Origin: Dehalococcoidia bacterium
Lineage (GTDB): Bacteria > Chloroflexota > Dehalococcoidia > DSTF01 > JALHUB01
Direction: 5' to 3'
Length of the DNA stretch: 64,000 nucleotides
Assembly (NCBI GenBank): GCA_030018455.1
Contig: JASEFU010000002.1
Span: forward strand, 141,480-205,479
Part shown: in pieces, positions 1 to 12,978 of the stretch
Layout: each line of letters opens with the position of its first letter
Numbering within the stretch: the first letter of the stretch is position 1
Made by a program: the position numbers and the translations under genes
The notes under the pieces: model-generated
Told to the model about the DNA's origin: nothing
Databases searched by the model: none
What the model saw: the letters and a program-made list of their open reading frames with translations, nothing else

Positions 1-32
1 CAGTCCGCTCCGCGCTCGAAACTGAAGACACG

Positions 33-374
33 ATGATGACGCGAATTCAGCGCGAAAAACGAACGGTCGGCGCGATGATCGATCTGTACTGCCGCGCCAA
101 CCACGGGGCATCGGACGGGCTCTGCGCAGAGTGCGCAAAACTCCGCGACTACGCCTTCGCTCGCCTCGACCGCTGCCCCTTCGGCGGCAAGAAGCCCACC
201 TGCGCCAAATGCCCGGTCCACTGCTACAAGCCGGACATGAGGGACGAGATCAAGCGTGTGATGCGCTTCGCCGGCCCGCGCATGCCAGGGCGCCACCCGC
301 TCCTGGCGCTGATGCACCAGCTCGATTCGCTGCGCGGCAATCGAAGCCGCCGAGAGCGCAGGTCGACCGGCTAG
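33..374 (+). CDS. Nitrous-oxide-stimulated-promoter (YgbA-like) family Cys-rich protein
   Basis: 113 aa; motif IDLYCRANHG...LCAECAKL...CPFGGKKPTCAKCPVHCY matches the YgbA/NO-stimulated family pattern. Confidence 0.6.
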   Translation: MMTRIQREKRTVGAMIDLYCRANHGASDGLCAECAKLRDYAFARLDRCPFGGKKPTCAKCPVHCYKPDMRDEIKRVMRFAGPRMPGRHPLLALMHQLDSLRGNRSRRERRSTG

Positions 375-685
375 CGGGCGGGGGAGGCCTTCTCCTCTTC
401 GCGGGAGGCGCGCCGCCAGGGCAGCAGCCCGAAAAGCAGCCTGAACGTCATCTGGACGGCGAAGACCATTACCGCCACGGGCAAGAAGAGTATGAACGCC
501 AGGCCGGCGATGGGCCCCAGCACCATCACAACCGCCAACGGAACCCGGTAGTAGACCGCGCCGTCGTCGGGGAGGTGACCGCCCCCCTCAGGGAGCTGGG
601 TCAGGTCCCATGCCCTCTTCTTCAGGTAAATGCCCTCAGGAGCGGGCTGCCCGCCGCTATAGGTCTTTATTAGCTTCCCCTTCAT
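371..685 (-). CDS. Small membrane protein, unknown function (last gene of long minus operon)
   Basis: 104 aa, one to two TM helices; GGGAGGGG SD 8 nt before ATG. Confidence 0.45.
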   Translation of the reverse strand: MKGKLIKTYSGGQPAPEGIYLKKRAWDLTQLPEGGGHLPDDGAVYYRVPLAVVMVLGPIAGLAFILFLPVAVMVFAVQMTFRLLFGLLPWRRASREEEKASPAR

Positions 686-913
686 CTCAGTTTCCCCTCC
701 CGGTCAAGCCGTGCTCTCGTCTTCTAACCGGATCCTACGGCGGGCCGGGCGAGACCAGGAAGAGTCGCCTGTCCGTCCGGAGAAATGCAAACGCCTCAAA
801 CGCGGCCAAAAAACGCCCTACTTGCATACGCCTTCTGCACAAGACTGGCGGGAGCAGCCAGACGCAAAGCGGTAGACGGTGGCAGTGTGTGGATTGGAGG
901 GAAGCCGGCGAAG

Positions 914-1582
914 CTAGCGGCCGATGTCCACGAGGCCCGCCCGGATCGCGAGCTTCACCAGCTCCGTGCGGTTGTGGACTTCCAGCTTCTCCATGATGCC
1001 GGCGCGGTGGTTGGCGACGGTCTTCGCGCTGAGAAAGAGTAGGCCGGCTATCTCGCGGTTGCTCCGCCCCTCGGCCAGGAGCTTGAGGACTTCCTTTTCG
1101 CGGCCGCTCAGCCGGTCGAGCCGCCGCTCCACCTCGTCGTCCTCGCCTTCCCTGAGGTAGCGGTCGATCACCGCTTTCGTGACCGAGGGGTGCAGGAACG
1201 ATTCGCCGGCGTGCACGGCGCGAATAGCGGAGACAAGCTCGCTGCCGGCGGCCTTCTTGACGATGTAGCCGGCGGCACCCGCCTTGAGCATCTGGAGGAC
1301 GTACTCCTTGTTATCGTACTGGGTGAGGACGATTACCTTCGCCGGCGACCGCCGCTGACGCAGCTCCAGCGCCGCCTCCAGACCGCCCAGCCGTGGCATC
1401 GCGATGTCCATGAGCACAACGTCGGGGGCGAGCTGTACGGCCTTCTCCACCGCCTCCACGCCGTCCGCGGCGTCGCCCACCACCTCCACGTCGTCGTGCG
1501 CGTCCAGCAGCGCCCGGATGCCGTCGCGGAGGACGGCGTGGTCATCCGCTATCAGGACCCGAATCTTGCGCATCGTCGTCAC
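914..1582 (-). CDS. Two-component response regulator, NarL/LuxR family
   Basis: Receiver domain (IADDH...VVLMDIAMP...KVIVLT) + LuxR HTH ([35 protein letters not shown]). Confidence 0.9.
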
Positions 1583-3521
1583 TCTCCCTTTCGATGGGAA
1601 CGACGGCCCGCACCCGCGTTCCCTTGCCCGGCCGCGAGACGATCTCGATGCTGCCGCCGAGGAGCGTCGCCCGCTCTTCCATCCCCATCAGTCCCCAGCC
1701 GGAGTGTTTTCCCGACGCTTCGCCTGTTGCCGCGACGTCGAAGCCCTCACCGTCGTCCTCCACTTCGAGCGCGACGCGGCTTTCGTCGAACGTGAGCGTC
1801 AGGGCGACCGCGGAAGCGCGGGCGTGGCGCGCGACGTTGTTGACCGCCTCCTGCCCGATGCGGAACAGGGCGGTCTCCGCCTCGGCGGGCAGCCGGCGCT
1901 CCTTCCCTTTCACCTGCAGGCGGACGCGCACGCCCGCCGGTTGCAGGCGGCTCTCGGCGTACCAACGGAGACCGGCCACCAGCCCCAGGTCGTCGAGAAC
2001 GGACGGGCGGAGGTCGTAGATCAGCCCGTGGACGCGCTCCAGCGTCTCCACCGCCAGTTCCTTGAGCGACGCCAGCCTTCGCTGCAGCCCGGCCGCGCCG
2101 CTCTCCGACGTCAGGGAGGCGGTCTCCAGCCCGACGGCGAGGGCAGTCAGGCTCTGGCTCGTCTCATCGTGGAGCTCGCGGGCGATGCGCCGGCGCTCTT
2201 CTTCCTGAGCGCCGATCACCTTCTTGAGCAGACGGCCGCGCGCCGCCTCTTTTCGCTTCAGCTCCTCGTACAGGGCGGCGTTCTCCTCGGCGACCGCCCG
2301 CAGGCTATCGCGCGACTCCTCCAGCTCGCGCGTGCGCTCCCGGACGCGCAATTCCAGCTCGCGGCTCTGCGCCTGTATCGTTTCCAGCGATTCGCTGAGC
2401 TTGATCCGCATCACCTCGAAGACCATCGCCAGGTGGCCGATCTCGTCCCGCCCCAGGATGGGCACGCGCCTCGAGAGGTCGCCGGACGCTATCCTCTGCG
2501 CGGCGTCCGTCAGGGCCGCCACCGGCCGTGTGACGCTGCGTACGGTTGCCCAGCCGAAGAGCAGCGCGAACGAGAAGGCGCCGACGCCCAGCCACAATGC
2601 CCGCTCCTTGAGCCGACGCGCGGGGGCCAGCGCCTCATCCTCCGACTCGCGGATGAGCACTCCCCACGGCGCTGACTGAAGAGGAGCGAACGCCATCACC
2701 TCCGTCTCGCGCTCTTTCCCGTTTTCGGACTCGTGGCAGTCGTGGCAGGTGCCCGACGACGTCCGGTTCTCCTCGATGAGCGCGGCCACCTGATGACGGT
2801 GGTCCGTCGTTTCGAGCGTCTGGTCGGCGCGGGTGCTGGCGAGGATCGCCCCCTCGCCGTCCACGATCTGCGCGTAGCCGGTCTCGCTCAGCGACGCGAG
2901 GTATATGACCTCCTGAAGGTTGCTGCCGCTGAGGCCGATGTCGCCGCCGACCAGTCCGACGAGCTTGCCGCTGAGGTTGCGCACCGGCACCACCATCGAG
3001 ACGGCGGGTCCCCCGTCAGCCACGGCGGCGGTCAGACCGGACACGGCGCTCGCCCCGCTTTCGAGGGCGTCCGCCACGTGAGGGTTGGTGGAGATGTCTT
3101 TCCCCAGCACGGACGGCGTTTCGGGCTCGATCCACAGGAGGCGGCCGCTCGCATCGGTGAGATAGACGCCGCGGCTGAAGATGGTGCCGAAGAAGGCGCG
3201 GCGCAGCGCCCGCCGCTCCGGCTCGGGGTCGGCGTCCTCGAGGTCGAACCCATCGCCGAACGGGACTTCGTCCAGCGCCTCCAGGCTCTGGCGCACGACG
3301 TAGTCGACGTGGCCGCCGGTCGCCTCGGCGAGGGCGCGGCGCTCGTCAACGGAGCGGTCGATGCTCTCCGAGACGGCGAGCAGGCTGATGATGCTGAAGG
3401 CGACGAGTATAGCGACGATGCCGATGGTCACCAGAAGCATGATGCGCCACTGGAGGCTTCTCCTGATGATCCCGGGTCGGCCGCCTCGAGGGGTCTTGTC
3501 GCCGTCGAGCCCCTGGCCCAT
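1542..3521 (-). CDS. Sensor histidine kinase (HisKA_3/HATPase) with periplasmic sensor domain carrying a CxxCH heme-c motif
   Basis: 659 aa: TM, ~230-aa periplasmic domain, CHDCH (aa 259-263, nt 2733-2747) as only Cys pair, 2nd TM, coiled coil, H-box [13 protein letters not shown], HATPase_c. Confidence 0.85.
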
Positions 3522-3534
3522 CGCGAGTCCCCCG

Positions 3535-4317
3535 CTACCCGCCCGGCGGCTTCTCCGCTGTGCCGCCCGCAGCGGGCTCCGACGACAGGTGCGCGGGGAG
3601 CTCCTTGATGCCCATCAGGCGCATGTACTCGCGCAGGTGCTCCTCGATCATCCTTTCGCGCGATATCTTGCCGTTGATCATCGACTGGTCGAGAGGAAAC
3701 ACGTTCGGGCTGAAGACCACGCTGTAGAAGTGCCAGATGACGATGACCAGGAAGGCGAGCAGGGCTTCGCCGCTGTGCGTCTCCTTTGCCGCGGCCACAA
3801 ACTCGCCGGGGAGCACGCGCGTGACGTAGGTGGGAAACCAGAGCATGAGGCCGGTGGCGATCATAATGACGGCCCCGAATACGATCCCCCAGTACTCGAA
3901 GATCTGCCGGAAGTCGTAGCGGTCGAACTCCGGCCGGCGGGAGCTGAGGCCGACGGAGTAGCGCAGCCAGTCGAACGCATCGAGGAAATCGCGGGGCGTC
4001 GGTATCATCGAGGGAGTGAAGCGCTTCAGAGCAACGGACGCCGCTATCGCTCCCAGGTGGAAGCTGGACTCGAAGATGAAGAGGGTGGCGAAGATACGGT
4101 GGAAGAGGCGGACGTTATCGATGCCGCCGAGCGCGGAAATGACCCACAACGAAGGGGCGGCCTCGTGGAACTTCTGGGGCAGGCCCGTCGTGACAAGAGC
4201 AAGGAACGTGAACACGAGCACCCAATGCTCAAGCCGCTGCCCCAGGGTGAAGCGGAGGAACTCCTCCGGTTCCGGAACCTCGCGTATGCCCTCTCTGTGC
4301 GCCTCTGCCTTTATCAT
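3535..4317 (-). CDS. Di-heme b-type cytochrome, Ni/Fe-hydrogenase/formate-dehydrogenase gamma (HydC/FdnI) family, split CbcL-like b subunit
   Basis: 260 aa, 4 [24 protein letters not shown] pattern; homologous to C-terminal half of 5430..7292. Confidence 0.8.
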
Positions 4318-4329
4318 CTCGGCGTCCCC

Positions 4330-5433
4330 CTATCGATTGCGGGCCAGCCGCCACAGATCGACCATGATATACAGGACCAGCCCGCCGACCATGAAAGGAA
4401 TGAGAAAGCGGTAGTACGTCTTGACGAGGTATACCAGGGTCGCCTTGTCTAAGCTGGGCTCGTAGTGCGACAGCCACGCGGAAGGGAAGTTGACGGTGGC
4501 ATCCGGGTGGCACTTGCGACACGTGGTCAGCAGGTTCTCCTTTATGACGCGCGACTCGGGATCGTCCACGGCCTTGATGTCGTGGACGCCGTGGCAGTCG
4601 CTGCACACGGGCTGGTCGGGCCAGACGTCCGTCCCCTCCTTCTGGTAAAAGCCGACAGTCTTGCCGTGGAAATCGTCGAGGTACGTCTTGAGGACGTTGG
4701 AGGAGATACCGTATTTGTCCATCAGCTCCTTGTCGGCGTGGCAGCCGGCGCAGAGATTGAGCGAATCGAGCCGGAAAGAGGCGGTCGTAGCGCTGGGTAT
4801 GTTGTGGACGCCGTGGCAGGTTGTGCACACGGGCACGTCGGGGTTTTCCTCACGTAGAGCGGAGCCGTGGATGCTGGAGCTGTACGCCTCGTAAATGCCT
4901 TCGTGACATTTTGAGCACGCCTGGGCGATCTGCGTCCGTGATTCGCGGATCGGCGTGGCCGCGTGGGCGGTGTGGCAGTCGGTGCAAAGCGGGGCGTAGG
5001 TGAAGCCCTTCGAAAGCGCCTCGAAGTGCACGCTATCGAGGGTCAGCGTGTAGTTCTTGAAGTGGCAGCGCTTGCACAGCTCGTACTGCGCCTGGGAGTA
5101 CTCCCGTCGCCCGGAGACCTCCGGCAACGGGTGAGGGTAGCGGCGGTTCCGCTCGTGGCAATCGAGGCAGTTCAGCTTGTCGCCGTGGACGGAGCTGCGA
5201 TAGGCCTCTTCATTGAACGTGAGTGAAAGAGCATCGCCGTTGGGGAACGTCATCGCGATCTCAGGCCGCAGGTGGCAGCGCAGGCACGACGCGTTCGGGT
5301 CCTGGGCCGGCGGCGAGGGCGGCGGCGCGGACTGCGCGACCGGGGCCGCGCGCAAGAAGACCAGGCCAAGGGAGGCGGCAGCGCATGCGCCCAACAGCAG
5401 CCGCGAGAGCGCGCCCCGTTTCCGTCTGTTCAT
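4330..5433 (-). CDS. Nonaheme c-type cytochrome, signal peptide, C-terminal TM anchor (split CbcL-like c subunit)
   Basis: 9 CxxCH motifs (CLRCH, CLDCH, CKRCH, CTDCH, CSKCH, CTTCH, CAGCH, CSDCH, CRKCH); start overlaps upstream stop (ATGA). Confidence 0.85.
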   Translation of the reverse strand: MNRRKRGALSRLLLGACAAASLGLVFLRAAPVAQSAPPPSPPAQDPNASCLRCHLRPEIAMTFPNGDALSLTFNEEAYRSSVHGDKLNCLDCHERNRRYPHPLPEVSGRREYSQAQYELCKRCHFKNYTLTLDSVHFEALSKGFTYAPLCTDCHTAHAATPIRESRTQIAQACSKCHEGIYEAYSSSIHGSALREENPDVPVCTTCHGVHNIPSATTASFRLDSLNLCAGCHADKELMDKYGISSNVLKTYLDDFHGKTVGFYQKEGTDVWPDQPVCSDCHGVHDIKAVDDPESRVIKENLLTTCRKCHPDATVNFPSAWLSHYEPSLDKATLVYLVKTYYRFLIPFMVGGLVLYIMVDLWRLARNR

Positions 5434-7292
5434 GACCCGCCTCCCGCCGGCCCGAAAGCGTCGCTTTCCGCTCCGCGGGCACGGGCCGCCTGGTCGCCGG
5501 AGGAAGCCGCCCGCCGCTTTGCCGCCTCATCGATGGCCGCCAGCTCCAGCGGGTGCTCCTCGGCGTAGAGGCGGCGCTGCATCTTGCCGGTGAAGATCGA
5601 CCGGTTCAGGGGGAAGAAACGCGGGTTGAAGTGGACGAAGAAGAAGTGCACAACGAATATCCACAGCACGGCCAGCACCGCCTCGTCGCTGTGGGCGAGG
5701 AAAGCCACCGAGATCATGTCGCCGGGAAGGAAGCGCGCGGCCATCGTCGGGAACATGAGCATCAGCCCGGAGAGGCCTATCACCGGCATCCCCCAGAAGA
5801 TCGCCCAATAGTCGAACTTTTCCCGGTAGCTGAAGCGCCCGAACTTCGGCCGCTCCGACGAATGGCCGAACCAGAACTGCAGGTCCTGGAAGAAATCGGC
5901 GATATCTTTGGGCGCGGGAATCATCCAGATGGGCAGCGGCTTCTTCAACACCAGCGAACCGAAGGCGACGTACCCCAGGTGGTAGACGCAGTCCGCCAGC
6001 ATCACCAGCCCGGCGAAACGGTGGATGGCGCGGGCGCTATCCAGCCCTCCCCACGCGTCGATGAGCCAGCGGCTCGCGCCCCACTCGGAGAACTTCTGCG
6101 GCAGGCCGGTGAAGGCGAGGACGAGGAAGCAGGCCATCATCAGGAAGTGCTGCGCCCGCTGATGGACCTCGAAGCGAAGGATTTCCTGCGAGGGATGGGC
6201 CGAATCGAGACCTTGCGCCCCGGCGGGCCGATTTCCCGCCGGGTCGCCGGATGCGCCTGAGAGCGCGACATGCCGGTGGCCGCCGGCACCTCCGCCGACG
6301 CCGGGCCCGCCGGACGAGGGGCCTCGTCCGTCGCCATCGCCGTGGCCGTCGCCGCCGCCGCCGCGCCCCGTCAGCCAGCCGAACCCCTCGAGCCCGACCA
6401 TCAGCAGCCCCAGGCCGACCACCGATGTGGTGAGGATGAAGAAGAAGCGCTCGCCGTAGTAGACAAGCGGCGACTCGTCGGCGGAAGGCTCCTGGTGATA
6501 AGCGAGGCTGCGCGCGAAGCTCTCGTTCGCGTCGGAGTGGCAGCGGGCGCAAACGATCGCCAGGGTCGCCGCGCTGCGCACGGGCGACGTCCTGTCGTCC
6601 ACCCTCTTCGCGTCATGGCTGCCGTGACAGGTAGCGCAGGTGGCGGGACTAAGGGCGGAGAGGTCGGCCCGCGAGAGGCGGAGCGCTTTGGCGTGGGGGC
6701 TGCCCATGTAGGTCTCGAACACGTCCGTCTTCAGCCCGTACCGCGCCATCAGCGCCTCGTCGGCGTGGCACTTTCCGCAGGTGGCGGCCACGTTTTTTCG
6801 GTACACGGGCGACTGGGCCGACAGGACGGGCTGAATTGCATGGCCGGATCCGCCAGGATTGTGGCAATCGAGGCAGGTGGCGACGTGGGCGTCGGAGTGG
6901 ACGCTCCTCGCCTGGAGCGCCTGCTCTTGCCGGTGGCAGCGGCCGCAAAGCTCGATCACCGCCTGCCCCTCGATGCGGCGGCCGGCGTCGTCCTCGTCGT
7001 GGGTGGAGTGGCAGCTCGCGCAGTCGACCCCCTCATGCACGGAGGAGGCGAGCGGCGCCTCGTCCACGTACAGGCGGCGGCCGGGGTCGCTCTCGCTCAC
7101 CGGCGGGTTGTCGGCGTTGCCGTGGCAGCCGAGGCAGCCGCTGAGGTCGACGGCGCTCTCGCTCTTCGGCGGCTCGCCGACCTGGCTCCTGCTGGCGTAG
7201 ACGACAACGCCTATGCCCGCGAGCACCGCGCAGGCGACCATGAGTCCGAGAAGGTACGCGAGCGGCTTTCCCACAGACACTTTTCCATCCAT
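5430..7292 (-). CDS. CbcL-like fusion: heptaheme c-type cytochrome + HydC/FdnI-type cytochrome b
   Basis: 620 aa; 7 CxxCH, TM, Gly/Asp-rich linker (GGGGDGHGDGDGRG...), then 4-TM b-type domain paralogous to 3535..4317. Confidence 0.85.
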   Translation of the reverse strand: MDGKVSVGKPLAYLLGLMVACAVLAGIGVVVYASRSQVGEPPKSESAVDLSGCLGCHGNADNPPVSESDPGRRLYVDEAPLASSVHEGVDCASCHSTHDEDDAGRRIEGQAVIELCGRCHRQEQALQARSVHSDAHVATCLDCHNPGGSGHAIQPVLSAQSPVYRKNVAATCGKCHADEALMARYGLKTDVFETYMGSPHAKALRLSRADLSALSPATCATCHGSHDAKRVDDRTSPVRSAATLAIVCARCHSDANESFARSLAYHQEPSADESPLVYYGERFFFILTTSVVGLGLLMVGLEGFGWLTGRGGGGDGHGDGDGRGPSSGGPGVGGGAGGHRHVALSGASGDPAGNRPAGAQGLDSAHPSQEILRFEVHQRAQHFLMMACFLVLAFTGLPQKFSEWGASRWLIDAWGGLDSARAIHRFAGLVMLADCVYHLGYVAFGSLVLKKPLPIWMIPAPKDIADFFQDLQFWFGHSSERPKFGRFSYREKFDYWAIFWGMPVIGLSGLMLMFPTMAARFLPGDMISVAFLAHSDEAVLAVLWIFVVHFFFVHFNPRFFPLNRSIFTGKMQRRLYAEEHPLELAAIDEAAKRRAASSGDQAARARGAESDAFGPAGGGS

Positions 7293-7295
7293 CCT

Positions 7296-7550
7296 CTAGC
7301 CGAATACCTCGTCGTAGAGCAGCAGCATGGCGGAGACGGCCACTACCGCTCCGAGCAGGAGGAGGAAGAGGTCGCGCAGCCCGGACAACACCCGCCATCC
7401 GGAGGCGAGGACGCCGCGGACGGTGCTGGCCTCGCTTTCGGGGCTGAGCCGGCGCACCAGGCCCGCCATCCCCGTCACGGCAAGGTATGCCCCCGCCAGC
7501 ATCACCGACCAGCAGGACAGGTACGATACGATGAAACGGGCCGCCTCCAA
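7296..7550 (-). CDS. Small 2-TM membrane protein
   Basis: 84 aa hydrophobic ORF in operon context. Confidence 0.35.
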   Translation of the reverse strand: MEAARFIVSYLSCWSVMLAGAYLAVTGMAGLVRRLSPESEASTVRGVLASGWRVLSGLRDLFLLLLGAVVAVSAMLLLYDEVFG

Positions 7551-7573
7551 CCGTCATCTCCCTTCCATTTGCC

Positions 7574-7816
7574 CTAGACAAGAGCCTGGGCAAGCACCAC
7601 TATCCCCTGCGTCACGAGGGCGAGACCGGCGCAAAGGAACGCCAGGCCGGGCACCAGCATGCGCGGGCTCCCGTTCCGTCCGAGGCGCGGCAGCCGCCCG
7701 CTCACGCGGACAGCGACGCCGGACAGCCGGGAAATGCCCAGGCCCACGAGTTGCAGGCCGACAGCAGCGGCCGTGCCATAGGCGAGCATCCGTAGCGGCG
7801 TCAGGAGGTCACTCAT
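7574..7816 (-). CDS. Small 2-TM membrane protein
   Basis: 80 aa hydrophobic ORF in operon context. Confidence 0.35.
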   Translation of the reverse strand: MSDLLTPLRMLAYGTAAAVGLQLVGLGISRLSGVAVRVSGRLPRLGRNGSPRMLVPGLAFLCAGLALVTQGIVVLAQALV

Positions 7817-8228
7817 GCCGCTCCCTCGAAAGCTCGCCGCGCTTGCCTGCGCCCGCCTCCCGAAGGGCGCGGAGCAGGTCTTCCACCTTCGCTACCTTCA
7901 TCTGGCTGTCCCTGTAAATATGAAGAAGGTTCTCCGCTGGGCAGAGGCGGACTACCGCGCCGCCCGGGTTGCAGTCGAAGATGGCGGACGCAGTGGCCAG
8001 CGATTGCGGTTCGTTGATTTCGCTGGCCAGGATCACGACATCGGGTCGCAGCGCAGCGATGCGCTCCATCCCCGCCTCGATATCGATCTCGGAGCCGACG
8101 ACGCGCAGCCCGCGCTGCCCCCGCAGCAGGGTCTCGACGCCGCGGGCGAGCAGGACGTGGCGGCTCAGGATGAAGATGCGCTGCGTTCTCATCGCACCCA
8201 TGCTAGACCGCATGCAGCGCCGCGCCAT
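7809..8228 (-). CDS. Degenerate (pseudo-)receiver domain protein; probable start at 8192 (MRTQRIFIL)
   Basis: RIFILSRHVLLARG...PDVVILASEINEP resembles receiver fold but DD pair and phospho-Asp replaced (S/R, A/S). Confidence 0.4.
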   Translation of the reverse strand: MARRCMRSSMGAMRTQRIFILSRHVLLARGVETLLRGQRGLRVVGSEIDIEAGMERIAALRPDVVILASEINEPQSLATASAIFDCNPGGAVVRLCPAENLLHIYRDSQMKVAKVEDLLRALREAGAGKRGELSRERHE

Positions 8229-8422
8229 CGTACCGGCGATTCAAATCAGAGGGTACTTACGGTCAGCCGGAGGAGCGGATTTCCTAGACGGACGTCTAGA
8301 CGATTAAACGCCGCGGCCATGGGTGGGATCGGCGTGTCTGTGGTGAGGCCCCGAGCCAGACGGAGCGGGCGACGGGACTCGGGCCCGCTTGCCGGCAGGC
8401 AGACCCGCGACCCTCCGCGGCC

Positions 8423-8890
8423 TTGCGTTTGGACCGCATCTCCACTTTCAGAGGGACGTTGGTGGCAGCCCCACCGTCTTCTACTTCGTTGGGTATCCGG
8501 GACGGGCTGCGGGTGGGCCAACGGGTCACCGCTCAGAACAAGCCGCCTGTGGTGACACCGCCGCCCACACCCAAACCGTCACCCACCACCATGCCGAAGC
8601 CGCCCGCCTGTTCGGGAATATCGTTAACGACTGCGTACCCGCAAGCAGCTCGTGGACCCGTGTCCGGCGACTTCAACAACGATGGGTACGACGATCTGGC
8701 GGTGGGGGTGCCCGGCGAGGATGTGGGCGCCACTGCTGATGTTGGAGTGGCCAGCATCACCTACGGCTCTGCCAGCGGCCTACAGGCGGGCGGGAACCGC
8801 ATGTGGTATCAGGGCCTGGACGGCATCCAGGGTGCTGCCGAGGCGGGGGATTCATTTGGCGGGTTGCCCCTGACCTGCTCGCTGGGCTGA
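8423..8890 (+). pseudogene. FG-GAP repeat protein fragment
   Basis: Two FG-GAP-like repeats (GDFNNDGYDDLAVG; AGDSFGG) then stop; surrounding region lacks clean genes. Confidence 0.25.
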
Positions 8891-9146
8891 ACATCCGGCT
8901 TTGTGGGGGCGGACGACCCTGTGTCCGCCCCCACATCATCACCTGCCCCTGCGCCGATGCAAAGCATTCCAACAGCTTCGATCCGCCGAAGGATCTCCGC
9001 TGTGCTCCGCCATTGACCGCTCCGCGACTCGGGCAGCCAATCGGAACTGTAAGAAATCTCCTCCTTCCTGGTGTAACAGGCAGAGACAGAAACAGATCCA
9101 CTTCAGAAGGAGCAGCCCGTATGAGCGTCTCGAGACGAGCGCAGTA

Positions 9147-9722: not shown

Positions 9723-10274
9723 GTGATGTTTAGGCGGGGGCGCCGCTACTGCGCAGAGTTGCATCGCCTCACCAAGGAATACCGAGTTGAGGGCATCTCA
9801 GCCTCAGCCCGCAAGCTCATCGCGACACACCGGCGAATGCGCCGTCTGCCAGGAGCGGCGGCTACGGCTTGTTTCGGCCGAGAGTGTCCTGCGGTCGCTG
9901 GTTCCTCTGCCCCTCCTGCTCAAGAAGAGAACTGCCGAGACAGCGACCCAAGCGTGGCCTTTGGTCAGCGGCGGAGCGTCCGGAGCGAGTGGGGTCGGTG
10001 GCAGCTGGGTGCGGTTGTCTCGCAGTGGCGGCCTGGTACAATCGCAGAAGTACGTCCGCAACAACCTGCGCCAAATCCCCCTGTGCCGCCGGGAGCCCGT
10101 TCTGCACAATTCGACGTTCTGGGACCACGCTCCCGCATCGCGCGCCGCATGCATCGATGGCTTGTTACCAGCGCCGGGCCTGCAAGAGGAACGGTAGCTC
10201 GAAAAGCAGAGGGTCGGAGAGCTTTCAATACAAGAGGCCGGGTGAACCCCCGGCCTGACTGCGTCTACCGCATG

Positions 10275-10323
10275 TGGAGCGGGAAACGGGACTCGAACCC
10301 GCGACCCTCTGCTTGGGAAGCAG
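10275..10323 (-). repeat. Partial tRNA-Gly 3' half (positions 28-76), displaced att copy
   Basis: 49/49 identity to 3' part of tRNA at 12903-12951. Confidence 0.8.
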
Positions 10324-10337
10324 TGACTGTTGCGGGT

Positions 10338-10667
10338 TCATCCGGCGCGCTCGAGGGCGCGGGCGAGGCGGTCGTGAGGGCCTCGGGACCTAGCGGCGCG
10401 AACGGAGCGCTCGACGTAGGAGAGGGGGCGGCGGTCGGCCTTCGAGGGCCTCCCGGGCTTGCGGGGCTTGGCGGGGATCCCGCGGGTGATGACGCCGGCC
10501 TTGATGAGGGTGACGGCGCGGTGGAGGTTCTGCAGGGCGCGGTCGGCGTCGGGGGAGTTGAGGGCGCGATAGAACAGGCGCTGGAGCTGCTGGCTACGGC
10601 GCCCGTGCTTAAGGGCGTTGAGGTTTCCTCGGGGCGCGCCCGCGCCTGATCGTCTTCCTCCGCGCAT
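10338..10667 (-). CDS. Hypothetical protein of the element (GNLNALKHG motif), basic C-terminus
   Basis: Very high GC3 coding signal; upstream AT-richer leader; start ATG 10665-10667. Confidence 0.45.
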   Translation of the reverse strand: MRGGRRSGAGAPRGNLNALKHGRRSQQLQRLFYRALNSPDADRALQNLHRAVTLIKAGVITRGIPAKPRKPGRPSKADRRPLSYVERSVRAARSRGPHDRLARALERAG

Positions 10668-11223
10668 TTTTGGGGGGTGTTTCTGAATCTGGCGTTTGAT
10701 TGTTTGGGCGGGGCGGGCGCCGTCAAGGGCGCGCGTGAGCGCGGGCCGGAGGCCTCGGAGACCCTTGACGGCGTGGTGGTGGCGACGATCGCGGTCGCCG
10801 TCGCCGCCGTCGACCGTCGGCGGCGACGGCATACCTAACCGCCGCGCCCACTTCCTGCCGCGACGGCGGGCGGCTGCGAGCACGAGGGCGGCCCGCTGGT
10901 CGAGCTAGCTGGTCGTTTCGAACATGGCCCGGGGGCATCCGTGGGGCACCGATACTTTCGGGCCGCCGGAGGGCCGCACCGCCCGCCGGATTGTAGCACG
11001 GGGTGGCTGCTGGCTTCGAGGGGAGCCCGCCGCAGGCGGGACCCGCGAAGCGCCCGCGAGCCGGACGGCGACGTGGGCGCGAGCGGATCAGCCAAAGAGC
11101 GCGCGGCGGGTGGGCGGGCAAGCGCGATACCGCTTTGACGACGACGAACGACGGCAGGCGCGCCGTGCGGTGTGGCGTGGAAGCGGGCCGCGAGAGCGGG
11201 CCGCGCGGGCGGCTCCCGGGCCG

Positions 11224-11467: not shown

Positions 11468-12346
11468 TCATTGTAGCAGGCGGCCCTGGGCGGCTGCGGG
11501 CCTTCGGGCGATGGGGCTGAAGCGGGCGTGCTGGGCGCGGACGTCGCGTAGGTCCATGTCGACGTATCGCTTCGTGGTGTCGATCTGGCGGTGGCCGAGG
11601 ATTCGTTGGAGGGAGAACACGTCGCCCCCGGCGGTGATGTAGAGGCGGGCGAAGGTGTGGCGTAGGAGGTGGGGGCCGCCGGGGATCCCCGCGCGCTTGA
11701 GGGACCGGCGGACGGCTTGGGAGACGCCTGAGGGGGTGAGGGGGCCTTTGCGCCCGGCCCAGAGGGTGGTTGCGTCTCCGAGGCCGACGAGGGCGGCGAG
11801 GACCTGCGGGCTGACGGGGATTTCGCGCATTCCGGTTTTGCCGGTGACGAGGGTAGCGGGGCCGAGGTGGGCGCGGGAGAGGGTGGCGACCTCGCCGATT
11901 CGGAGGCCGGTGTCGAGTAGGAGCAGCAGCAGGGCGCGGTCGCGGCGGGCTGCGGGGCCGGTGCGCGCTGCTGCGGTGGCGAGCAGGTGGTCGACCTGGT
12001 CGTCGGATAGGGCGCGGGGGAGTAGCTGGCGGCGCCGGGGCGGCGCGAGCTCGAGGGCGGGGTTCGGGACGCCGAGGCGTGCCGAGGCCCAGCGAAAAAA
12101 CGTGCGCCAGACGCGAAACACGTCGTGGCGGCTTTCGGGGGATAGTGGGAGTGCGGCGAGCGCGTTTTCGAGGGGCTCAGGGGCGCTAGGGAGCGCGTGG
12201 GAGGCGTTTTTGAGGGGACGGAGGGCCCAGAGGTAGGCCTGCAGGGTCTTGGGCGCGAGGTTGCGGGCCCTGCAGGAGGCGATGAAGGCGTTGACGGCTG
12301 CCTCTGTGGTCAGGGTTTCGGGCGGTGGCGCTGTTCTACGAGCCAT
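11468..12346 (-). CDS. Tyrosine recombinase/integrase (XerC/D-like)
   Basis: 292 aa; C-terminal RHTFARLYITAGGDVFSLQRILGHRQIDTTKRYVDM (R..H..R..Y catalytic signature). Confidence 0.9.
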   Translation of the reverse strand: MARRTAPPPETLTTEAAVNAFIASCRARNLAPKTLQAYLWALRPLKNASHALPSAPEPLENALAALPLSPESRHDVFRVWRTFFRWASARLGVPNPALELAPPRRRQLLPRALSDDQVDHLLATAAARTGPAARRDRALLLLLLDTGLRIGEVATLSRAHLGPATLVTGKTGMREIPVSPQVLAALVGLGDATTLWAGRKGPLTPSGVSQAVRRSLKRAGIPGGPHLLRHTFARLYITAGGDVFSLQRILGHRQIDTTKRYVDMDLRDVRAQHARFSPIARRPAAAQGRLLQ

Positions 12347-12789: not shown

Positions 12790-12902
12790 AGCTTAGCGTC
12801 AAGGGGGTAGTTGGGGAAGAGGCCCCGGCCGTCAAGTAGCTACACCTGGGGGCCGTACGTTGGCCTCTGCGGACTCGAGGCCTCTCCCGGCATTTTAGCA
12901 TG

Positions 12903-12978
12903 TGGAGCGGGAAACGGGACTCGAACCCGCGACCCTCTGCTTGGGAAGCAGATGCTCTGCCAACTGAGCTATTCCCGC
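12903..12978 (-). tRNA. tRNA-Gly (anticodon CCC)
   Basis: 76 nt cloverleaf: acceptor GCGGGAA/TTCCCGC, D-arm GCTC-AGTTGGCA-GAGC, anticodon loop TTCCCAA, T-arm GCGGG-TTCGAGT-CCCGT, discriminator T, CCA encoded. Confidence 0.85.

Follow-up and report, generated by a model that had tools for sequence, protein, structure and literature searches.

The window analysed here is a stretch of 64,000 nucleotides (nt) from a Dehalococcoidia bacterium (Chloroflexota; GenBank assembly GCA_030018455.1, contig JASEFU010000002.1, positions 141,480 to 205,479 of the forward strand), and the subject of this report is a sensor histidine kinase encoded near its beginning, which carries a candidate attachment site for a c-type haem in its sensor domain. 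The kinase gene belongs to a set of five genes on the same strand that are separated by at most 13 nt or overlap, encoding a seven-haem cytochrome fusion, a nine-haem cytochrome, a cytochrome b, the kinase and a response regulator. The initial annotation of the window, made from the letters alone, had placed the kinase in an operon of multihaem cytochromes. This was confirmed; the seven-haem and nine-haem cytochrome genes upstream together encode 16 CxxCH motifs. The operon reads as follows, in window coordinates.

5430–7292, minus strand: first gene of the operon, a seven-CxxCH cytochrome joined through a Gly-rich linker to an FdnI-like cytochrome b domain (Pfam, NCBIfam, CxxCH count)
4330–5433, minus strand: c-type cytochrome with nine CxxCH motifs, a signal or anchor at its N-terminus and a transmembrane helix at its C-terminus
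3535–4317, minus strand: cytochrome b (Ni_hydr_CYTB/FdnI-like, about four transmembrane helices), ending 13 nt before the kinase start (Pfam, NCBIfam)
1542–3521, minus strand: sensor histidine kinase of 659 amino acids (aa) with transmembrane helix 1 (TM1), dCache_1, transmembrane helix 2 (TM2), HAMP, HisKA_3 and HATPase_c (open reading frame (ORF) and Pfam)
914–1582, minus strand: NarL/LuxR-type response regulator (receiver and GerE helix-turn-helix), its start overlapping the kinase stop by 41 nt

A lone CxxCH motif in the extracytoplasmic loop of the kinase

The kinase scored 60.9 bits for dCache_1 (cutoff 45, aa 117–290), 59.8 for HAMP, 53.8 for HisKA_3 and 51.7 for HATPase_c. The pairing of HisKA_3 with HATPase_c and the adjoining regulator with Response_reg (96.6 bits) and GerE (73.8 bits) domains fit a two-component system of the NarL class, and our own reading of the ORF translations found both the kinase H-box (RELHD) and the receiver Asp of the regulator (VLMDIAMP). 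Within the kinase, the following features were placed.

3375–3443, minus strand: TM1, aa 27–49 (hydropathy; six Lys/Arg residues upstream)
2601–3374, minus strand: extracytoplasmic double-Cache sensor domain, aa 50–307 (AlphaFold2, Foldseek, PDB profile matches)
2643–2888, minus strand: membrane-proximal Cache module, aa 212–293, with the motif between strand 3 and strand 4
2799–2801, minus strand: H241 of an S-D-H motif just before the helix of the proximal module, a candidate distal haem ligand
2733–2747, minus strand: candidate haem-c attachment site C259-H260-D261-C262-H263 (translation)
2649–2651, minus strand: R291 in strand 5 of the proximal module, co-varying with CHxCH
2541–2600, minus strand: TM2, aa 308–327, followed directly by HAMP (hydropathy, Pfam)

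Translation of the minus strand at 2733–2747 (TGCCACGACTGCCAC) gave C-H-D-C-H, residues 259–263 of the 659-aa ORF, so the lone CxxCH motif reported for the periplasmic domain is present as described. Its cysteines had been called the only ones between the two transmembrane helices; C259 and C262 are in fact the sole cysteines of the entire protein. The reported distance of about 25 residues to TM2 needs correction, as C259 lies 49 residues and H263 45 residues away. Because six Lys/Arg residues precede TM1 and HAMP follows immediately after TM2, the loop of residues 50–307 was assigned as extracytoplasmic, and the motif falls in this loop rather than in a cytoplasmic or transmembrane segment. 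From hydropathy, the positive-inside rule and the position of HAMP, CHDCH is predicted to be exposed outside the cytoplasmic membrane, the side on which haem lyases work. With the composition of the loop (2 Cys and 6 His in 256 aa), a CxxCH appeared by chance in about 2 of 10,000 shuffles.

Fold of the sensor domain

An AlphaFold2 model of aa 48–310, built from an alignment of 30 family members, reached a predicted local distance difference test score (pLDDT) of 92.8 and a predicted template-modelling score (pTM) of 0.88. It showed a long N-terminal helix and two stacked alpha/beta modules; in the protein, TM1 and TM2 flank the domain. The best Foldseek matches in the PDB were the dCache domains of PctA, PctB, CtaA, Mlp37 and KinD (E about 5e-14), with TM-scores of 0.66–0.76 against PctA and PctB, and sequence-profile matches in the PDB were to KinD and PctA–C. 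By its Pfam score above the cutoff and its double Cache fold, the sensor domain is a regular member of dCache_1 (PF02743).

In the model, the membrane-proximal module consists of strands 216–221 and 225–229, a helix at 242–250, strand 255–260, a loop at 261–272 and strands 273–280 and 286–293, after which a helix runs into TM2. The best sequence matches of the isolated module were PDB 3LIB and 3LI8, sensor domains of Methanosarcina mazei kinases, at a non-significant E of 0.06–0.55. Opposite T-C-H-x-C-H these proteins read G-I-G-G-H, so a His aligned with H263 also exists in a haem-free Cache domain.

A precedent for haem c in a Cache domain is the sCache_heme family (DUF3365/Tll0287-like, PF11845; GSU0582, GSU0935 and Tll0287), for which its authors claimed the first covalent cofactor in any Cache domain (Deshpande et al. 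2026, preprint, PMC12889525). Its CXXCH motif, found in 99% of the family, sits between strands 3 and 4, where the inserted segment includes a short alpha-helix (PMC12889525). The placement of a CXXCH between these strands supports the reading of the window motif as a haem site. The initial annotation had pointed to Cache/PAS-haem families, but the profile search returned plain dCache_1 and left the DUF3365 haem-Cache family unmatched. PF11845 gave no match to the window kinase (E ≤ 0.1), to 66 full-length relatives (E ≤ 0.001) or to six isolated proximal modules (E ≤ 10), and 5B82, 3B47 and 3B42 did not appear among the PDB sequence and Foldseek matches listed.

Conservation of the motif across relatives

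A word-indexed homologue search gave just 3 and then 15 matches, and it was replaced by an exhaustive HMMER search over 1.84 billion representative sequences, which found 1036 relatives at E < 1e-3 and 93 at E < 1e-30. Motif counts were taken from the 143 best domain-covering matches, which are representatives clustered at 50% identity. Cys, Cys and His occupied the query columns in 107 of these 143 sequences, from several phyla, and the second Cys was directly followed by His in 107 of the 110 sequences that had both cysteines. The residue after the first Cys, the column of H260, was also a His in 102 of the 107 motif-bearing sequences (95%), giving the signature G-T-C-H-x-C-H, and the sensor domains of the family usually contained exactly two cysteines. 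The conservation in orthologues that the initial annotation had left to be checked was thus found across phyla, and because the same column carries C-H-x-C-H in so many representatives, a chance origin of the motif is excluded. The motif is real and non-random.

The 36 representatives without the motif mostly had no Cys, and their loop was shorter by 3–5 residues. A neighbour-joining tree placed them in three clades of 18, 7 and 4 members and seven singletons, and CXXCH was universal only within the motif-bearing clades. Two further positions co-varied with CHxCH. One was D240. The other was R291, whose column held Arg in 89 of the 107 motif-bearing sequences, whereas 21 of the 36 motif-less sequences had Glu there and 4 had Arg; R291 is a candidate partner of a haem propionate.

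Among 66 full-length members, dCache_1 was found in 65, HATPase_c in 52 (with HisKA_3 in 41 and HisKA in 14) and GAF in 41, and none of the 66 had a chemoreceptor (methyl-accepting chemotaxis protein, MCP) output or was a stand-alone sensor domain. In public annotations the members appear as 'HAMP domain-containing', 'cache domain-containing', 'GAF domain-containing' or 'histidine kinase' proteins, and haem is never mentioned.

The cytochrome cassette in relatives and fusion of cytochrome b to the kinase

A scan of species-representative genomes, using patterns from a five-sequence alignment, gave 42 motif-bearing loci. They came mainly from Chloroflexota (Dehalococcoidia and Anaerolineae) and Nitrospirota, with some from Acidobacteriota, Thermodesulfobacteriota and Nitrospinae. 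In 23 of the 42, a homologue of the nine-haem cytochrome (37–69% identity) and a cytochrome b adjoined the kinase and a NarL-type regulator, and two further loci on broken-off contigs still showed the cytochrome b, so that 25 of 42 were counted as having the cassette. The cassette of nine-haem cytochrome, cytochrome b, kinase and NarL-type regulator recurred in Chloroflexota, Nitrospirota, Acidobacteriota and Thermodesulfobacteriota, and in most related loci the gene immediately after the kinase encoded a homologue of the regulator. The cassette was absent at all six motif-less relatives that were looked up individually; one of them has a molybdoenzyme operon of an unrelated kind and, 6 kb off, a cytochrome. 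The difference between 25 of 42 motif-bearing and 0 of 6 motif-less loci gave a Fisher p of 0.008, which is indicative only since the loci are phylogenetically non-independent.

Two sensor domains retrieved through a motif-independent pattern (loci L012 and L023) carried CHAGCH and CHSGCH, in which both cysteines and the adjacent His are kept in a CX3CH arrangement. This spacing is a known variant in some c-type cytochromes. At both loci the nine-haem cytochrome and cytochrome b lay downstream of the regulator.

In eight Nitrospirota loci the cytochrome next to the kinase had 13 CxxCH motifs. Its C-terminal part was homologous to the nine-haem protein, and a separate four-haem ORF lay upstream in six of the eight; the 13-CxxCH form is a lineage-specific extension of the cassette in Nitrospirota. 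At another locus (L010), on a contig labelled as a Sphingomonadaceae metagenome-assembled genome (MAG), we found a cassette of the Chloroflexota type with a kinase 45% identical to the query, and this label could stem from mis-binning or from horizontal transfer.

In six genomes (L001–L005 and L007) the cytochrome b formed the N-terminal part of one continuous reading frame with the kinase, giving fusion ORFs of 873–1087 aa. The linker was Pro/Ala-rich and about 50 residues long, and the cytochrome b part was 57–64% identical to the product of 3535–4317 in the window. The same fusion was found in a 910-aa protein (P0004), which together with three further 910-aa members of its cluster was present on 13 contigs from several archives, and the fusion is therefore no assembly artefact. 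The annotated linkage of the kinase to multihaem cytochromes thus extends well beyond the window, as a cassette in several phyla and as a fusion in six genomes.

The window itself has the split form, in which the cytochrome b gene ends with a stop codon that is followed by 13 nt, including a G-rich stretch, and then by the ATG of the kinase. A split caused by a frameshift artefact is disfavoured by this stop and the ATG 13 nt later, and the split was treated as real, with an error being possible. The cytochrome b has four transmembrane helices in our own reading of the sequence, whereas a hydropathy scan scored three. With four, an even number, both of its ends lie on the same side of the membrane, in agreement with an inward kinase N-terminus and an outward Cache domain.

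A probable haem-c redox sensor and its alternatives

An ordered, extracytoplasmic Cys-x-x-Cys-His, in which only CX3CH variation is tolerated and which is usually made from the only two cysteines of the domain, in proteins that can be fused to a cytochrome, is most simply read as the site of a covalent c-type haem. In this reading, the membrane-proximal Cache module of a large subfamily of dCache_1 kinases would have acquired the site G-T-C-H-x-C-H in the connection of strands 3 and 4, and the cytochrome c maturation system would couple a single haem to C259 and C262 on the outward-facing side of the membrane. H263 would be the proximal axial ligand, with H241, or H260 from the partner subunit, as candidates for the distal ligand. 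Since the motif lies in the proximal module, next to the helix that enters TM2, the haem would be well placed to move TM2 and HAMP, and its oxidation or a change in its ligation could be passed through TM2 and HAMP to HisKA_3/HATPase_c and on to the NarL-type regulator. The neighbouring genes reproduce the architecture of the Geobacter protein CbcL (described below), and for this reason the sensor haem is proposed to equilibrate with the partner module, most likely by exchanging electrons with the nine-haem cytochrome and the FdnI-like cytochrome b, which would together make up a split quinol oxidoreductase of the CbcL kind. In this way the redox poise of this respiratory branch would reach the kinase, which would tune the expression of the cassette, the autoregulation being suggested by gene order. 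We consider it probable, at roughly 0.6, that the kinase is a haem-c dCache protein that exchanges electrons with the CbcL-like module and reports redox poise to the NarL-type regulator, which adjusts cassette expression. A more far-reaching version can be put forward only tentatively: a haem-c Cache would have been invented independently a second time, and the kinase, its haem wired into the CbcL-like module, would itself be part of the respiratory complex, which would gauge its own electron flux and thereby set its own expression in Chloroflexota, Nitrospirota and Acidobacteriota.

Several observations weigh against a haem-c redox sensor. The motif was present in only about 75% of the family (107 of 143), compared to 99% in sCache_heme. 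In the AlphaFold2 model CHDCH lies at the end of a strand or within a long hairpin, at a lower confidence (pLDDT 63–86), and not in the helical turn that is usual for CXXCH. The closest lineage, at 64–65% identity (L001 and P0001), has CHGCR, which lacks the haem-ligating His but keeps both cysteines. CHGCR was found in two independent datasets, a marine sediment sequence (P0001, aa 258–262) and the Dehalococcoidia MAG of L001 (ORF aa about 473), and it differs from CHxCH by a single G/A change in the His codon; it is apparently a real loss of the ligand. H241 was found in 96 of the 107 motif-bearing and in 33 of the 36 motif-less sequences, so it is not specific to haem, and being equally conserved without the motif it was rejected as a haem-specific distal ligand. 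The cassette was missing within 8 kb at 17 of the 42 motif-bearing loci, some of them on short contigs, and one of the locus-search patterns contains GTCHxCH, so that the 42 loci can serve for gene context and not for motif frequencies. Finally, no cytochrome c maturation gene was found within the window (no WWD-motif protein), although the 16 CxxCH motifs of the two upstream genes imply such a system in the genome.

The strongest competitor keeps the covalent haem and changes the signal. The kinase would then be a sensor of a gas or small ligand (nitric oxide (NO), CO, O2 or sulfide), switched by ligand binding at the iron. This would follow the only characterised haem-c Cache family, in which the members fused to signalling domains act as NO sensors and the stand-alone domains show redox-type behaviour (PMC12889525), and in a later study a redox change alone shifted the output less than NO did (10.64898/2026.05.25.727664). 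In the window, a gene at 33–374 on the plus strand, convergent with the regulator gene, matched the YgbA-like 'nitrous oxide-stimulated promoter family' (NCBIfam NF007714, 131.7 bits against a cutoff of 88) and may hint at a connection to nitrogen oxides. However, the conserved neighbours of the kinase form a quinol-oxidase-like multihaem module and are not NO, N2O or nitrite reductases, the fusions of cytochrome b to the kinase point to coupling with an electron-transfer complex, and the family is unrelated to sCache_heme beyond the common fold. We regard a gas sensor as unlikely, though not to be neglected.

Still less probable is a protein without haem, in which C259 and C262 with H260, H263 or H241 form a metal site (Zn, Fe, Cu or Ni) or a thiol-disulfide switch that senses metals or external oxidising power. 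Four potential metal ligands do lie within five residues, H260 is 95% conserved although a CXXCH haem needs no such residue, the AlphaFold2 model has no haem-type turn and the CHGCR variants retain both cysteines. Lifestyles that reduce or are exposed to metals would also be plausible for carriers of multihaem cassettes. On the other hand, of the 110 sequences with the Cys pair, 107 have a His directly behind the second Cys, and this His stays adjacent in the CX3CH variants, while H241 is independent of the pair. Neighbouring residues i and i+1 rarely chelate one ion, which counts against a metal site, and the association with cytochromes and the fusion to cytochrome b are specific to the motif-bearing group. 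That the motif arose by chance or is decaying, and does nothing in the window protein, is hardly credible, since the loss of His in the nearest lineage and the absence of the motif in about a quarter of the family are set against a composition expectation of about 2e-4, the conservation of this column across several phyla (107 of 143 representatives) and a window copy that is canonical and has no other Cys beside it.

The haem-c redox sensor first proposed in the initial annotation is thus a plausible candidate, which the analysis strengthened and supports in part: the conservation of the motif, its extracytoplasmic site and the linkage to cytochromes speak for a haem-bound sensor in a cytochrome operon, a match to a Cache/PAS-haem profile did not appear, and the nearest homologues have CHGCR. 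We read the dCache_1 kinases with the putative haem-c site as a second, apparently undescribed haem-c Cache lineage besides sCache_heme.

Other features around the operon

One further gene may belong to the cassette.

371–685, minus strand: small membrane protein of 104 aa without a family match, a possible member of the cassette

Homologues of this protein follow the regulator at nine of the related loci and lie farther away or on the opposite strand at three others. On the other side of the operon, 7809–8228 on the minus strand encodes a 139-aa protein with a weak resemblance to NarL receivers in which the acidic pocket is lacking (FILSRH in place of the DD motif). Three related loci have a homologue upstream of their cytochrome genes, and the product is possibly a pseudo-receiver of the kinase system. 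In the product of 5430–7292, the linker between the seven-haem and cytochrome b halves is rich in Gly, Asp and His (aa about 300–345, GGGGDGHGDGDGRGPSSGGPGVGGGAGGH) and follows a transmembrane helix at 283–301. Promoter and terminator scans of positions 1–9000 gave nothing above the shuffled expectation.

Farther along, an exact 54-nt direct repeat of the 3′ half of a tRNA-Gly gene (10270–10323 and 12898–12951) brackets an integrated element of about 2.6 kb, with a tyrosine recombinase/integrase at 11468–12346 (minus strand) and an ORF without assignment at 10338–10883; the tRNA-Gly(CCC) gene lies at 12903–12978 (minus strand). The cytochrome/kinase cassette is outside this element.

Significance

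No class of bacterial extracellular sensors is larger than the Cache domains, and for a long time these were taken to be free of cofactors. If the reading as a haem-c redox sensor is true, the kinases described here would form a second haem-c Cache lineage, unrelated in sequence to sCache_heme, with a double Cache and concentrated where sCache_heme is rare. The functional context is unusually explicit, as the conserved and sometimes fused partner is of the quinol-oxidising multihaem type known from extracellular electron transfer. The lineage would offer a testable model for the control of metal or electrode respiration in uncultivated Chloroflexota and Nitrospirota. It would also be a case from nature of a histidine kinase built into a respiratory complex, and it would provide bioelectronic engineering with a compact switch from redox state to transcription. 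Added interest comes from the union of a histidine kinase with a respiratory cytochrome module, which is conserved, sometimes covalent and amounts to a natural gene-fusion link.

Comparison with known systems

The closest parallel is sCache_heme. Both families have an extracytoplasmic Cache fold with a conserved CXXCH between strands 3 and 4 of a Cache module, sCache_heme is likewise often fused to histidine kinases, and in both, haem is the proposed or demonstrated sensing cofactor. In contrast to the single Cache of sCache_heme, the window family has a double Cache with the motif in the membrane-proximal module, and no short helix is predicted at the motif, which was modelled as a loop or hairpin with lower pLDDT. 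The window family also has an extra conserved His (C-H-x-C-H), is in a fixed partnership with a CbcL-like cytochrome cassette, has no stand-alone forms among 66 members and is abundant in Chloroflexota, a phylum in which sCache_heme is reportedly rare (PMC12889525). Membership in sCache_heme was rejected on the lack of PF11845 and structure matches, the double Cache, the different phyla and the lack of stand-alone forms. Compared to known dCache_1 sensors, the window kinase has the same fold, Pfam family, position between two transmembrane helices and downstream wiring to HAMP and a kinase. Those sensors bind small molecules non-covalently, mostly in the distal module, and have no Cys motif, whereas the window kinase has a candidate covalent cofactor in the proximal module.

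DcrA of Desulfovibrio vulgaris Hildenborough is a c-type haem chemoreceptor (Fu et al. 1994 and Yoshioka et al. 2005, cited in PMC8396549 and PMC2886117). It resembles the window kinase with its candidate haem in that its periplasmic domain, held by a membrane protein, has a single c-type haem, and it responds to redox state or oxygen. DcrA is an MCP, and no MCP signalling domain was found among the 66 members of the window family. DcrA is said to have a CHHCH motif, which would fit C-H-x-C-H, and a smaller periplasmic domain of about 190 aa.

CbcL of Geobacter sulfurreducens combines nine CX2CH motifs with a HydC/FdnI-like dihaem b cytochrome, and a survey from 2018 found no CbcL homologue in Chloroflexi (PMC6295460). 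In the window, 4330–5433 and 3535–4317 are CbcL-like in architecture, as a split pair, and 5430–7292 is a fused seven-haem version. We know of no linkage of CbcL to a kinase or fusion with one. In the literature, of which our coverage was incomplete so that an earlier description is possible, only the DUF3365 work was found on haem-c Cache domains. The same incomplete coverage gave no haem-bearing dCache domain, no haem-bearing kinase beside multihaem cytochromes and no fusion of a CbcL-type b subunit to a kinase.

Kinases that sense the respiratory chain include ArcB and RegB/PrrB, which respond to the quinone pool or a signal from cbb3 oxidase, and TorS, which is inhibited by apo-TorC. They rely on cytoplasmic or membrane cysteines, quinone binding or protein–protein contact, and to our knowledge none of them has a covalent haem in a Cache domain or a fusion to a b subunit. 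What they have in common with the proposed role of the window kinase is the concept of reading the electron-transfer chain and feeding back on the respiratory genes.

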